A stretch of 64,000 bases of DNA from an uncultured Chloroflexia bacterium (GCA_963767165.1 CAVYCV010000003.1:986509-1050508); one strand, 5' to 3'. Positions 14,822 to 18,578 are shown, counted from the first letter of the stretch. Notes: generated by a model from the sequence alone, not told the origin. Made by a program: numbers and translations.

Positions 14822-15178
14822 ATGACGACCTCGACGACACTCGGGATCAAGACCGTTCTGCATCCCGTGTCAGACCTCGCGGCGGCCAAGGCCGTGTACA
14901 CCGCCCTGCTCGGCATCGAGCCGCAGGCAGACGCGCCCTACTACGTCGGCTACGACGCCGAGGGACAGCACATCGGGCTGGTGCCCGGCGGCGGACCGCA
15001 GGGCATGACCACGCCGGTCGCCTACTGGCACGTTGCGGACATCGAGGCGAAGCTGGCCGAGGTCACTGCCGCGGGTGGCACCCTGCACGAGGCCGCGCAC
15101 GACGTCGGCGGCGGCCGCCTGGTGGCCACCTTCTCCGACCCCGACGGCAACGTCCTCGGCCTGGTCCAGGACCGCTGA
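14822..15178 (+). CDS. VOC family (glyoxalase/bleomycin-resistance/dioxygenase fold) protein
   Basis: ATG at 14822 is preceded by AGGAGACG. The 118-aa product 'TVLHPVSDLAAAKAVYTALLG...ATFSDPDGNVLGLVQ' is a typical VOC fold. Confidence 0.65.
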   Translation: MTTSTTLGIKTVLHPVSDLAAAKAVYTALLGIEPQADAPYYVGYDAEGQHIGLVPGGGPQGMTTPVAYWHVADIEAKLAEVTAAGGTLHEAAHDVGGGRLVATFSDPDGNVLGLVQDR

Positions 15179-15204
15179 GCGCGGGTCCCACCTAAGATTG
15201 CGAC

Positions 15205-17604
15205 ATGAGCTTGGCAACGAAGACCGACACGCGCTCGCCTGAGCTGCATGTCGCCGACCGACACGACTTGATCCGCGTGCAGGGCGCGCGGGTCAACAAC
15301 CTCAAGGACGTCAGCATCGAGATCCCGAAACGCCGGCTGACCGTGTTCACCGGCGTGTCGGGCTCGGGCAAGAGCTCGCTGGTGTTCGACACGATCGCCG
15401 CCGAGTCGCGCCGGTTGATCGACGAGACCTACTCGACGTTCGTCCAGGTCTTCATGCCGAACATGCCCCGGCCCGAGGTCGACGTCCTCGAGGGGTTGAC
15501 CACCGCGATCCTGGTCGACCAGGAGCGCCTCGGGGCGAACCCGCGCTCGACGCTCGGCACGGTCACCGACGCCAACGCCATGCTGCGCAGCCTGTTCAGT
15601 CGCCTCGGCAAGCCCTACATCGGCGGGCCGACGGCTTTCTCCTTCAACATCCCGACCACGCGGGCCAGTGGGGTGATGACCGGTCCCAAGGGCGAGAAGA
15701 AGATCGTCCAGGACGCCATCTACCTCGGCGGGATGTGTGCCGAGTGTGAGGGGCGCGGCACCATCTCCGACCTCGACCTGTCGGTGATCATCGACGAGTC
15801 GAAGTCGCTCGCCGAGGGCGCCATCCTCGTGCCGGGGTACACGGCGGACGGCTGGATGGTGACCCAGTTCGCCGAGTCCGGCTTCTTCGACCCGACGAAG
15901 CCGATCAGGGACTACACCGAGAAGGAGCGCCACGACCTCCTGTACCGGCAGACGACGAAGGTCAAGGCCCGGGGCATCAACATCACCTATGACGGGCTGA
16001 TCCCCAAGATCCGCAAGTCGATGTTCAGCAAGGACGTCGACTCGCTGCAGCCCCACATCAAGGCGTTCGTCGAGCGCGCGGCGGTCTTCAAGACCTGTCC
16101 GGTCTGTGACGGCAGCCGGCTCAACGAGGCGGCGCGCTCGTCGAAGATCGACGGCCGCAGCATCGCCGACGTGTGCGCCCTGCAGGTCACCGATGCGGCC
16201 GAGTGGCTGCGCGGCATCGACGACACGGGCGCGGCGCCCCTGATCGCCAACCTGCTGCATCTCTTCGACTCGTTCATCGAGATCGGCCTGGGATACCTCT
16301 CGCTCGATCGCCCTTCGGGCACGCTGTCCGGGGGGGAGGCGCAGCGCACCAAGATGGTCCGCCACATCGGGTCCGCGCTGACCGACGTGACCTACGTCTT
16401 CGACGAGCCGACCATCGGCCTGCACCCGCACGACATCCAGCGGATGAACAGCCTGCTCCTCGAGCTGCGGGACAAGGGCAACACCGTGCTCGTCGTCGAG
16501 CACAAACCGGAGACGATCGCGATCGCCGACCACGTCGTCGACCTTGGCCCCGGGGCGGGCACCGGCGGCGGCACGATCTGCTTCGAGGGGACCGTCGACG
16601 AGCTGAAGGCGTCCGACACCCTCACCGGTCGCCACCTCGAGTACCGGACGGCGCTCAAGGACACGGTCCGAACGCCGACGGGTGCACTCGAGATCCGCGG
16701 CGCGGACTCGCACAACCTGCAGGACGTCGATGTCGACATCCCGCTCGGCGTGCTCTGCGTCGTGACCGGCGTGGCCGGGTCCGGCAAGTCGTCGCTCATC
16801 CACGGCTCGCTGATCCCGGACTCCGGGCCGGGCTCGGCCGGCGTCGTGTCGGTCGACCAGACCGCGATCAAAGGCTCCCGCCGCAGCAACCCGGCGACAT
16901 ACACGGGCCTGCTCGATCCCATCCGCACCGCCTTCGCGAAGGCGAACGGGGTGAAGCCGGCACTGTTCAGCGCCAACTCGGAGGGTGCCTGCCCGACCTG
17001 CAACGGCAACGGGATGATCTACACCGAACTCGGGTTCATGGACACGGTGGCGACGCCATGCGAGGACTGCGGCGGCAAGCGGTTCCAGGCCGCGGTGCTG
17101 GAGCTGCGCCTCGGCGGGCTCAATATCGCCGAGGTGCTCGATCTCTCCGTCGCCGAGGCTCACGCCTTCTTCGAGGACGGCGCGGCCAAGACCCCGGCCG
17201 CAGCCACGATCCTGGCGCGCCTGGTGGACGTCGGGCTCGGCTACCTCAAGCTCGGACAGCCGCTCCCGACGCTGTCCGGTGGCGAGCGACAGCGCCTCAA
17301 GCTCGCCACCCACATGGCCGAGAAGGGCGGCGTCTACGTCCTCGACGAGCCGACCACGGGCCTCCACCTTGCCGACGTCGAGCACCTGCTCGGCCTGCTC
17401 GACCGGCTCGTCGACGCCGGCAAGTCGGTCATCGTCATCGCCCACCATCAGGCGGTCATGGCCCATGCCGACTGGATCATCGATCTCGGTCCCGGCGCCG
17501 GCCACGACGGCGGGCGGATCGTCTTCGAGGGCACGCCCGCCGACCTCGTCGCCGCGCGTTCCACACTCACCGGTGAGCACCTGGCGGCCTACGTCGGAGC
17601 CTGA
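15205..17604 (+). CDS. UvrA-like ABC ATPase lacking the UvrB-binding domain (UvrA2/DrrC-type, class II excinuclease ABC subunit A paralog)
   Basis: Intact 799-aa ORF with two ABC modules. Walker A motifs 'GVSGSGKSSL' and 'GVAGSGKSSL', signature motifs 'LSGGEAQR' and 'LSGGERQR', and zinc-finger cysteines ('CPVCDGSRL', 'CPTCNGNG', 'CEDCGGKRF') are present. At ~800 aa it lacks the ~150-aa UvrB-interaction insert of canonical UvrA. Confidence 0.9.
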   Translation: MSLATKTDTRSPELHVADRHDLIRVQGARVNNLKDVSIEIPKRRLTVFTGVSGSGKSSLVFDTIAAESRRLIDETYSTFVQVFMPNMPRPEVDVLEGLTTAILVDQERLGANPRSTLGTVTDANAMLRSLFSRLGKPYIGGPTAFSFNIPTTRASGVMTGPKGEKKIVQDAIYLGGMCAECEGRGTISDLDLSVIIDESKSLAEGAILVPGYTADGWMVTQFAESGFFDPTKPIRDYTEKERHDLLYRQTTKVKARGINITYDGLIPKIRKSMFSKDVDSLQPHIKAFVERAAVFKTCPVCDGSRLNEAARSSKIDGRSIADVCALQVTDAAEWLRGIDDTGAAPLIANLLHLFDSFIEIGLGYLSLDRPSGTLSGGEAQRTKMVRHIGSALTDVTYVFDEPTIGLHPHDIQRMNSLLLELRDKGNTVLVVEHKPETIAIADHVVDLGPGAGTGGGTICFEGTVDELKASDTLTGRHLEYRTALKDTVRTPTGALEIRGADSHNLQDVDVDIPLGVLCVVTGVAGSGKSSLIHGSLIPDSGPGSAGVVSVDQTAIKGSRRSNPATYTGLLDPIRTAFAKANGVKPALFSANSEGACPTCNGNGMIYTELGFMDTVATPCEDCGGKRFQAAVLELRLGGLNIAEVLDLSVAEAHAFFEDGAAKTPAAATILARLVDVGLGYLKLGQPLPTLSGGERQRLKLATHMAEKGGVYVLDEPTTGLHLADVEHLLGLLDRLVDAGKSVIVIAHHQAVMAHADWIIDLGPGAGHDGGRIVFEGTPADLVAARSTLTGEHLAAYVGA

Positions 17605-17714
17605 CCGCGGCGCGGACAGCGTGAAGAGAGTCCTCACATGTGCCGTCACTGGACCCGACTCGTCGAGGGGCCGGTCGATCTCGCCGTGGTCGCCCGACGT
17701 GCCACAATCTCGCA

Positions 17715-18165
17715 CGTGACCATCAGATCCGCCCCGACGCAGAACCTGAGCGACCTCGCGTGGCTGCGCCGCGTCCGCGACCGGATCGACCGGGAGTACG
17801 AGCAGCCGCTGGACGTCGAGGCTCTCGCGCGCGGCGCACACATGTCGGCCGGGCACCTCAGCCGCGAGTTCAAGCTCGCCTACGGCGAGTCGCCGTACAG
17901 CTACCTGATGACGCGGCGCATCGAGCGCGCGATGGCCCTGCTCCGGCGCGGCGACATGAGCGTCACCGAGGTCTGTTTCGCCGTCGGCTGCTCGTCGTTG
18001 GGCACGTTCAGCACCCGCTTCACCGAGCTGGTCGGCGTGCCGCCGAGCGTCTATCGGCGTGACGGTGCCCGTGTGACGACGGGGATGCCGGCGTGCATCG
18101 CGAAACAGGTGACCAGACCGATCAGGAATTGGGAAGCGCCGATCGCGGAGCCTCGAACAGCGTGA
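17715..18165 (+). CDS. AraC family transcriptional regulator (HTH_18)
   Basis: AraC-type HTH 'LDVEALARGAHMSAGHLSREFKLAYGESPYSYLMTRRIERAMALL...SVTEVCFAVGCSSLGTFSTRF'. The ORF opens at 17638 (ATG); a GTG at 17715 is an alternative start. Confidence 0.7.
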
Positions 18166-18170
18166 CCAAG

Positions 18171-18578
18171 ATGAGCATCACCATCCACACGAGCGTTCTC
18201 CCGCACGACGACCCGGACGCGTCCCTGGCCTTCTATCGCGACACCCTTGGCTTCGAGGTTCGGAACGATGTCGGCAGCGGCAAGATGCGCTGGATCGAGG
18301 TCGGCCCCGTCGACCAGCCCGGTACGTCGATCCTCCTCGCGCCGCCGGCCGCCGACCCCGGCATCACCGAGGACGAGCGCCGCACCATCGCCGAGATGAT
18401 GGCCAAGGGCACCTACGGCTGGATCCTTCTGGCCACGCCCGACCTCGACGGCGTCTTCGAGCGAGTGCAGGCGATCGCAGAGGTCGTCCAGGAGCCCGCC
18501 GAGCAGCCCTACGGCGTTCGCGACTGTGCCGTCCGCGATCCCGCGGGCAACCTGATCCGCATCAAGGAGCTTCGCTGA
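18171..18578 (+). CDS. VOC family (glyoxalase-like) protein
   Basis: The 'MSITIHTSVLPHDDPDASLAFYRDTLGFEV...' start lies within ORF 18093..18578. It has VOC-fold hallmarks, and the C-terminus 'RDPAGNLIRIKE' is typical. Confidence 0.75.
   Translation: MSITIHTSVLPHDDPDASLAFYRDTLGFEVRNDVGSGKMRWIEVGPVDQPGTSILLAPPAADPGITEDERRTIAEMMAKGTYGWILLATPDLDGVFERVQAIAEVVQEPAEQPYGVRDCAVRDPAGNLIRIKELR

Follow-up and report, generated by a model that had tools for sequence, protein, structure and literature searches.

The locus described here lies in an uncultured Chloroflexia bacterium (GCA_963767165.1, CAVYCV010000003.1:986509-1050508), from which a stretch of 64,000 nucleotides (nt), hereafter the window, was analysed; all coordinates are counted from its first letter. 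Positions 14734-18578, a span of approximately 3.85 kb, contain four consecutive intact genes on the + strand, which encode a VOC-fold protein (VOC1), a UvrA-like ATPase, an AraC-family regulator consisting of helix-turn-helix (HTH) domains only and a second VOC-fold protein (VOC2). On balance, this stretch is best explained as a discrete, co-regulated cassette for defence against DNA-binding small molecules, located in an ordinary chromosomal context in a non-producer organism. The cassette is probably an inducible defence against DNA-binding toxins, and its predicted targets are most plausibly intercalating or bis-intercalating natural products.

Because the window is approximately 70% G+C, genes were called by the GC content of third codon positions (GC3 frame analysis) together with a listing of open reading frames (ORFs). 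GC3 frames, ORFs and Pfam matches agree on the four genes, confirming the cluster that an initial annotation of this DNA had drawn at 14822-18578, although the unit itself begins 88 nt further 5', at 14734. Its features are as follows.

14734-14757, + strand: Box 1, GACCGGTCAGGAATCGAGAAGCGC, a candidate operator for the AraC-type regulator, with which the cassette begins on the left.
14776-14791, + strand: predicted promoter core following Box 1, read from the sequence as a -10-like TAGAGT (14776-14781), 7 nt and an ATG at 14789.
14822-15178, + strand: VOC1, 118 residues, VOC fold (PF00903, E 7e-11), with GGAG 6 nt before its ATG.
15193-15198, + strand: TAAGAT, a possible -10 hexamer at the level of consensus resemblance, 6 nt before the ATG of the UvrA-like gene.
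15205-17604, + strand: class IIa UvrA-like ABC ATPase of the Ecm16 family, 799 residues, GC3 0.94, from profile and PDB matches.
17695-17718, + strand: predicted promoter core of the AraC gene, CGACGTGCCACAAT, from promoter alignment, with a -10 CACAAT (17703-17708), 7 nt and the GTG at 17716.
17716-18165, + strand: HTH-only AraC-family regulator of the MarA/RamA/SoxS type, 149 residues (PF12833, PF00165).
18116-18139, + strand: Box 2, GACCGATCAGGAATTGGGAAGCGC, a degenerate copy inside the 3' end of the AraC gene, with 2 mismatches in the 18-mer.
18158-18173, + strand: -10-like CAGCGT (18158-18163), 7 nt and the VOC2 ATG at 18171, a reading that matches the consensus CTAGCGTGACCGCC-ATG.
18171-18578, + strand: VOC2, 135 residues, VOC fold (PF00903, E 1e-15), right boundary of the cassette.

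The AraC and VOC2 ORFs as listed are longer (17638-18165 and 18093-18578, respectively). Alignment of approximately 50 orthologous promoters indicates that the true start of AraC is probably the GTG at 17716, giving 149 residues, and places the start of VOC2 at the ATG at 18171, giving 135 residues. The CAGCGT hexamer ahead of VOC2 overlaps the AraC stop codon (TGA, 18163-18165).

The limits of the cassette are revealed by its closest relative, a locus designated L089, in which the ATPase is 96% identical and all four genes recur in unchanged order, with the VOC1 orthologue 5' of the ATPase gene. The BLASTN alignment of the window with this locus runs from 14734 to 18571 at 89.5% identity; nothing outside it matches and the flanks are unrelated. 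Homology ends at the box and at the VOC2 stop codon, and the unit is therefore taken to start at the one and end at the other. No terminal repeats or mobile-element ends were found at the cassette boundaries. Pfam searches of 30 flanking genes, together with ORF sizes, revealed no polyketide synthase (PKS), non-ribosomal peptide synthetase (NRPS), glycosyltransferase or tailoring genes in the 64 kb, the largest GC3-supported ORF being the 799-residue ATPase itself. The link to a biosynthetic cluster that had been raised as a prospect for the flanks is thus not borne out within this distance, and intrinsic resistance is therefore indicated rather than producer self-resistance.

The ATPase is, as judged from its sequence, a new member of the class IIa UvrA proteins of the Ecm16 family. 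Of all PDB sequences, 7SH1 is by a wide margin the most similar to it (1226 bits over the full length); this entry is Ecm16, the echinomycin self-resistance protein (PMC10192343). The two proteins are 70% identical in an alignment of 792 residues that is interrupted only by short gaps of 2 and 5 residues. Scores are 532-573 bits for canonical UvrAs and 460 bits for UvrA2 of Deinococcus radiodurans (2VF7), so that UvrA2, although it also lacks a UvrB-binding domain, is further from the window ATPase by bit score than the canonical proteins are. Pfam identifies ABC modules (PF00005) and the UvrA DNA-binding domain (PF17755, residues 194-280), and the expected motifs are present: GVSGSGKS at 50, GVAGSGKS at 522, LSGGE at 374 and 690, and the DEPT Walker B. 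Zn modules 2 and 3 are retained, with all eight Zn cysteines (C176, C179, C296, C299, C589, C592, C612 and C615 in Ecm16 numbering) present and invariant in 82 of 82 aligned family members. UvrA profile positions ~118-275, which cover the UvrB-binding part and Zn module 1, are unmatched, and Pfam detects no UvrB-interaction domain in the protein; its alignment partner Ecm16 also lacks the domain (PMC10192343). A canonical UvrA of nucleotide excision repair was considered and rejected, since the UvrB-binding domain is missing and the protein falls below the equivalog cut-offs (690.1 bits against 729.8 for TIGR00630, the canonical UvrA equivalog, and 679 against 1147 for NF001503). The description of the 799-residue protein in the initial annotation as a class-II UvrA with a double ABC, Zn fingers and no UvrB-binding insert is thereby upheld. 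The nearest characterised relative is Ecm16, probably closer than the DrrC/SnorO-type proteins named there; some sources name homologues 'DrrC', by similarity only.

Ecm16 of Streptomyces lasalocidi shares with the window ATPase its length, two ABC modules, Zn modules 2 and 3 and an insertion domain. It confers resistance to echinomycin and other quinomycins and requires ATPase activity but not UvrA, UvrB, UvrC or UvrD (PMC9328131, PMC10192343), and neither does it complement uvrA nor can UvrA substitute for it (PMC9328131). Both quinomycin resistance and the stimulation of ATPase activity by drug-bound DNA have been shown for Ecm16 only (PMC9328131, PMC10192343). The echinomycin cluster that holds the Ecm16 gene is carried by a giant linear plasmid (PMC9328131), whereas the window gene has no biosynthetic neighbours and is part of a cassette with AraC, VOC and box elements. 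The insertion domain sets the substrate specificity of Ecm16 (PMC10192343); that of the window ATPase is 57.5% identical to Ecm16 residues 183-295 and is the most variable part of the family, with a mean identity of 65% compared to 80% elsewhere. DrrC, MtrX, SgcB2 and other cluster-encoded UvrA-like proteins have the same class IIa architecture and a presumed role in drug removal (PMC10413001, PMC9328131), but by published description the DrrC type is more distant, the insertion domains of Ecm16 and DrrC sharing 32% identity (PMC10192343).

The genome scan identified at least 598 confirmed ATPase relatives, of which the best 80 loci, 72-89% identical, were studied. These span Streptomyces, Micromonospora, Microbacterium, Nocardia, Rhodococcus, Arthrobacter, Rubrobacteraceae and Solirubrobacteraceae and include a few non-actinobacterial metagenome-assembled genomes; homologues that are 79-96% identical top a search of 5.8 billion proteins and belong mostly to Nocardioides and related genera, which by these matches makes a member of the Nocardioidaceae the probable source of the window. 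In a neighbour-joining tree Ecm16 forms a long branch within the ATPase family and the taxa are intermixed. Genes for AraC and VOC2 adjoin the ATPase gene in approximately 50 of the 80 loci, across many actinobacterial orders (tblastn with the window proteins). The commonest order is AraC-VOC2-ATPase, the order of the window also occurs in L025, L051 and L064, and VOC1 is an occasional extra, with 81-84% identical orthologues directly 5' of the ATPase gene in L015, L025, L034, L064 and L075. Clustering of the flanking ORFs of the 80 loci returned no other family in more than nine loci and no conserved biosynthetic family. Conserved synteny, a shared promoter box and boundaries that coincide with that box all favour the co-regulated unit proposed in the initial annotation, and the clustering of the genes, as far as synteny in approximately 50 of 80 loci and a shared cis-element can indicate, is not a matter of chance.

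AraC and VOC2 are especially closely associated: a short AraC gene is adjacent in every one of the genomes sampled through VOC2. Dozens of loci share a 452-nt offset from the start of the AraC match to that of the VOC2 match, and the two are therefore separate genes with a spacer of approximately 5 nt rather than a broken fusion. A frame-shifted fusion was accordingly rejected, the offset and spacer being conserved and no AraC-fused form occurring among the 120 best VOC2 homologues listed. Family members also occur on plasmids, namely Streptomyces megaplasmids, a Tsukamurella plasmid and a Deinococcus ficus plasmid. The Ecm16-family genes of S. clavuligerus pSCL4 (L082, 75% identical) and D. 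ficus pDFI2 (L081, 69% identical) have no annotated AraC or VOC neighbours, and these copies, the second of them from beyond the Actinomycetota, point to horizontal spread of the ATPase alone. Ecm16 itself, sought among PLSDB plasmids so that its neighbours could be inspected, is absent from them.

The shared cis-element is a strongly conserved box, GACCGRTCAGGAATCGAGAAGCGC, which is followed by 19-20 nt (counted from the end of the 16-nt core TCAGGAATCGAGAAGC), TANNNT, 7 nt and ATG, and which precedes VOC2, VOC1, other VOC or ATPase genes. Alignment of upstream regions gives the layout as GACCG(G/A)TCAGGAATCGAGAAGCGC, spacer, a TAGCGT-like hexamer, 7 nt and ATG. With up to 2 mismatches there are 59 copies in 54 of the 80 loci plus the window. 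In the window the 18-mer TCAGGAATCGAGAAGCGC is exact at 14740-14757 and has a 2-mismatch copy at 18122-18139; with up to 3 mismatches, two copies are observed against 0.07 expected by chance. At AraC-VOC2 loci the box is nearly always found inside the 3' end of AraC, ahead of the VOC2 start, and TAGCGTGA of the -10 region provides the AraC stop codon. The box is translated differently in different AraC tails, as RPIRNREA in L021 and RSGIEKRG in L006, and since it is read in two frames, selection acts on the DNA. Other copies have no AraC gene 5' of them and stand immediately ahead of VOC1 or the ATPase gene (L044, L051, L054, L056, L064, L065, L068, L075 and L077). The spacer between box and -10 is kept in length but not in sequence, and a hairpin within its 19-20 nt is unsupported, with a mean z of -0.17 and folds no better than those of shuffles. 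In the window, the ATG-GAC-ATC-ACC at 14789 shares the reading frame of VOC1 and corresponds to MDIT, with which VOC2 usually begins.

In an independent scan of metagenomes, the exact 16-mer was found 125 times, on 120 contigs. The gene next to the box on its 3' side was VOC2 in 62 cases, VOC1 in 18, a two-domain VOC-like protein of 207-208 residues in 8 and the ATPase in 3; 10 copies were too near a contig end to tell and 24 were followed by another gene or none. An expected target, VOC or ATPase, therefore follows the box in 91 of the 115 informative copies. AraC lies 5' of the box in 64 of the 125, and the full geometry of box, 19-20 nt, TANNNT, 7 nt and ATG is present in 73. The remaining targets include a 149-residue VOC protein, a Ddn-like F420-dependent nitroreductase (on one metagenome contig) and a DUF1801-like protein; these extra targets and the two-domain VOC-like protein were seen in L083 (5936-6608), L087 (3687-4362), L092, L096 and L180. 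As the box stands before further genes, the predicted regulon is wider than the cassette of the window. A subclass of the box with TAGCCT, 8 nt and ATG-GCC-GG... was found on metagenome contigs L148, L150, L164, L187, L202 and L209, where the downstream reading frame is short and not credible as a gene; the L150 copy lies approximately 640 nt 5' of AraC.

The regulator contains only PF12833 (E 4e-22) and PF00165, a double HTH, with a tail of approximately 25 residues, and its orthologues are likewise 147-149 residues long with a double HTH and a short tail. Its best solved relatives are RamA, the DNA-binding domain of AdpA, MarA, Rob and SoxS. The box ends 19-20 nt before the -10, at the position expected for a -35 hexamer, and the layout therefore suits an activator-dependent promoter. 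Co-occurrence of the two suggests that the regulator acts on the box. The AraC binding site that the initial annotation anticipated upstream of 15205 is better placed at 14734-14757, ahead of VOC1. The arrangement recalls the regulons of MarA, SoxS, RamA and Rob, in which a likewise minimal two-HTH activator without a sensor domain acts at a box of ~20-24 bp that abuts or overlaps the -35, with xenobiotic defence genes as its outputs, as in the cassette. It differs in several respects. The box sequence is unlike the marbox: inspected by eye against AYnGCACnnWnnRYYAAAY, GACCGRTCAGGAATCGAGAAGCGC shows the GCAC...YAAA pattern in neither orientation. Instead of efflux pumps and porin control, VOC proteins and a DNA-clearing ATPase are the predicted targets, the promoters are of leaderless type with an operator inside the coding end of the regulator, unlike those of enterobacterial MarA regulons, and no MarR- or SoxR-like upstream sensor is evident at the cassette.

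The AraC gene has a conserved promoter of its own, TGGGCAACTCCGG...CGACGTGGCACGAT, 7 nt, GTG. In the window its core aligns with the conserved ...CGACGTGGCACGATCTCGCAG-GTG of approximately 45 loci, but element TGGGCAACTCCGG is not conserved there; indeed, the upstream half of this promoter is not conserved in the window, where AraC comes after the ATPase gene. Elsewhere the promoter spacer TGGGCAACTCCGGTGCGACGTGGCACGAT (L002-L080, ~40-60 nt 5' of the start) is conserved beyond what a plain promoter needs, which suggests that a further regulator may bind there.

Upstream of the ATPase gene, the TAAGAT of the window has a counterpart in L089, where TAAACT lies 7 nt before the ATG in a spacer that is otherwise different. 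No Shine-Dalgarno sequence precedes the ATPase ATG in the window, and a consensus scan found no E. coli-type sigma-70 promoters or intrinsic terminators. In other loci, distant genera share a conserved nucleotide sequence that covers approximately 100 nt 5' of the ATPase gene together with its first 15 codons (about -100 to +45 in L015, L021, L022, L034, L037, L046, L050, L063, L069 and others, for example L037:9900-10056); this leader is absent from the window and its Nocardioides-type relatives. A structured RNA leader was rejected, since there is no Rfam match and no RNAalifold structure, and a hand-picked helix (AGGCGAC/GTCGCCT) enclosing the start was no better than shuffles. The leader has no codon periodicity either, and a small ORF is therefore unsupported on either strand.

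Both VOC proteins match PF00903, and there are also matches to Ble-like_N. In a low-identity alignment to the E. coli GloA sequence, the glyoxalase I ligands H5, E56, H74 and E122 correspond to T, L, W and R in VOC2 and to T, G, a gap and G in VOC1. These metal ligands are thus missing in both, unlike in a methylglyoxal glyoxalase. The best solved relatives of VOC2 are 5UMW and 6CKY (E 1e-20), actinomycete entries deposited as 'glyoxalase/bleomycin resistance protein', which probably belong to the TnmS sequestration set of tiancimycin; more such entries follow behind them, and TioX (3ITW, E 0.23) and BLMA/bleomycin-binding proteins are weak matches. Among the 120 best matches listed, which include Streptomyces, Actinomadura and Nocardiopsis, VOC2 homologues are 84-93% identical and mostly 135-145 residues long, and 80 positions are invariant in an 18-sequence alignment of close homologues. 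As speculation, this conservation hints at a macromolecular partner for VOC2, possibly the regulator. An AlphaFold (AF2) model of VOC2 had a pLDDT (predicted local distance difference test) of 49.7 from a shallow alignment and was not used. The pairing of a UvrA-like protein with a VOC-fold protein has a precedent in the thiocoraline cluster, in which UvrA-like TioU and the VOC-fold thiocoraline binder TioX act against a bis-intercalator (PMC4052310). However, TioU and TioX provide producer self-resistance inside a biosynthetic cluster, with no MarA-like regulator or box described, and VOC2 resembles TioX in sequence only marginally (E 0.23).

These observations allow a model of the cassette to be proposed. 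The 149-residue MarA/RamA-like AraC protein would be made from its own leaderless promoter, as the conserved geometry of -10 and start suggests. It would then bind the 24-bp box, which is centred near -45 and overlaps the -35 of promoters without a -35 hexamer, and activate transcription; binding would depend on AATCGAGAAGC. At the positions observed, the Box 1 promoter would drive VOC1 and the ATPase gene, and the degenerate Box 2 promoter inside the end of the AraC gene would drive VOC2. Leaderless transcripts would accordingly start at 14789, 17716 and 18171, and possibly at 15205. By family precedent (TioX and the bleomycin-binding proteins), the VOC proteins would bind or inactivate free drug. 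Given its 70% identity to Ecm16, a dimer of the ATPase would recognise drug-distorted DNA via the insertion domain, and ATP hydrolysis would clear the drug without incision by UvrB and UvrC, as has been demonstrated for Ecm16.

Several points weigh against a drug-defence cassette of this kind. Within the clade Ecm16 alone is linked to a drug by experiment, and the insertion domain, which would set specificity, is precisely the least conserved part of the family and shares only 57.5% identity with its Ecm16 counterpart. The regulator lacks a sensor domain that could account for signal input, another regulator could use the box, its pairing with AraC being a prediction, and Box 2 of the window has two mismatches and a weakened -10. 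Four of the genomes sampled through VOC2 have an AraC-VOC2 pair but no ATPase gene within 5 kb of it. In addition, the ubiquity of the system and the strong conservation of VOC2 are more in keeping with a universal stress, or with protein-protein contacts of VOC2, than with recognition of a single antibiotic class. A more elaborate version of the model is put forward tentatively, and we would not expect it to hold in full: AraC and VOC2 may form a split Rob-like sensor-regulator, in which a MarA-type DNA-binding subunit is joined by a VOC-fold ligand-sensing partner, and may control an inducible regulon of Actinomycetota via the box and leaderless promoters. This regulon would comprise VOC binders or enzymes, the drug-stripping Ecm16-like ATPase and occasional nitroreductases, and would constitute a hitherto undescribed intrinsic resistome against DNA-intercalating natural products, from which Ecm16 of the echinomycin cluster was recruited.

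The main rival is an adaptive response not to antibiotics but to electrophiles of endogenous or environmental origin, such as aldehydes and alkylating agents, in which the VOC proteins would detoxify, AraC would act like Ada/AdaA and the ATPase would flag bulky adducts; we consider it unlikely, although it deserves more attention than the other alternatives. A universal stress of this sort would suit the very wide distribution of the cassette and box (at least 598 genomes and at least 8000 VOC2 matches), the absence of a biosynthetic context in the window and the Ddn-like nitroreductase gene that follows a box in one metagenome contig. Numerous charged positions of VOC2 are invariant, including H6, H12, D13, D14, E29 and C119, and could make up a non-canonical active site. 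In E. coli the Ada box is AAT-N6-GCAA, AAAGCGCA, and the AAT-N6-GCGC and GAAGCGC of the cassette box resemble it loosely, as a lead only. However, neither VOC protein keeps the H/E/H/E ligands of glyoxalase I, and the regulator has no Ada-type Cys4 methyl-acceptor domain, as it begins approximately 12 residues before the HTH and the Ada model matches the HTH part only. Moreover, the ATPase cannot recruit UvrB, and the one close relative that has been characterised targets a non-covalent intercalator (PMC9328131).

It is improbable that the ATPase is a generic 'UvrA2' back-up damage sensor of housekeeping repair that happens to stand beside unrelated VOC and AraC genes. Sources do annotate the protein as excinuclease ABC subunit UvrA, and approximately 30 of the 80 loci have no adjacent AraC and VOC2, but synteny is kept across orders, the cassette moves as one unit and the box is found directly 5' of the ATPase gene also in loci that lack AraC and VOC2 (L044, L051, L054, L056, L065, L068 and L077). 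The score of the protein below the canonical UvrA cut-off and the failure of Ecm16 and UvrA to replace each other (PMC9328131) likewise argue against this role. An anti-phage system related to MADS is very improbable: although the ATPase has PADLOC matches to mad3 (E 2e-67) and mad8 (E 3e-29) and the cassette is mobile across contexts, each match covers one ABC module (226 bits, compared to 690 for UvrA) and is read as generic ABC similarity, VOC1, AraC and VOC2 match no PADLOC defence model, and the cassette contains no other mad genes, nucleases or methyltransferases. Least credible of all is a set of self-resistance genes for a DNA-targeting metabolite made by a nearby cluster, since, for all that UvrA-like genes mark anthracycline, quinomycin, aureolic acid and enediyne clusters (PMC10413001, PMC4052310), the 64 kb hold no such biosynthetic genes, the same cassette has unrelated flanks in L089 and the flanks of the 80 loci share no biosynthetic family.

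On the 5' side of the cassette lies a DUF1992/DJC28 gene (13811-15178, + strand, especially 14252-14821) that has no stop codon before VOC1; its frame crosses the box and promoter and enters VOC1 in frame, and the boundary at 14734 falls within its tail, as if insertion of the cassette had removed the original stop. Further 5', on the - strand, a large RecB-like nuclease/helicase gene (10589-14164) is broken up into three or more overlapping ORFs that differ in frame (12977-14164, 11637-13319 and 10589-11959), with RNase_H_2/PD-(D/E)XK-like and AAA_11/AAA_12 helicase parts; it is either a pseudogene or the product of indel errors. Directly 3' of VOC2, on the - strand, 18586-19954 resembles by eye an aminotransferase-type gene broken across frames, in which the high-GC3 frame switches near 19000, 19380, 19560 and 19650; its only clean ORF is the last 125 residues, in which Pfam finds no family. 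Partial Pfam matches, to GSDH, an arginine deiminase C-terminus, an ABC ATPase C-terminus and an SMP-30 fragment, occur in genes at 5222-5815, 6530-6940, 22220-22828 and 34444-34818, whereas the four genes of the cassette are intact. The partial genes suggest an indel-rich assembly or widespread gene decay.

The literature searched covers Ecm16, DrrC and genome mining for uvrA-like genes, and describes no AraC-VOC-UvrA-like operon or box. A regulated, cluster-independent cassette with its own operator thus appears to be an undescribed variant of a known resistance logic against DNA-binding drugs. The cassette offers a concrete regulatory circuit, predicted to consist of a minimal AraC activator, a 24-bp operator and leaderless promoters, and the family supplies many natural insertion-domain variants for studying how UvrA-like proteins recognise drug-distorted DNA. 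UvrA-like genes are used as markers of intercalator-producing clusters (PMC10413001), and the AraC/VOC2/box signature flags a large non-cluster clade whose members would otherwise be false leads in genome mining. The ATPase family is also found in clinically relevant genera, such as Nocardia and Tsukamurella. If the proposed role is true, Ecm16-type clearing of DNA targets extends beyond producer self-resistance to a widespread, regulated and intrinsic defence in soil actinobacteria.

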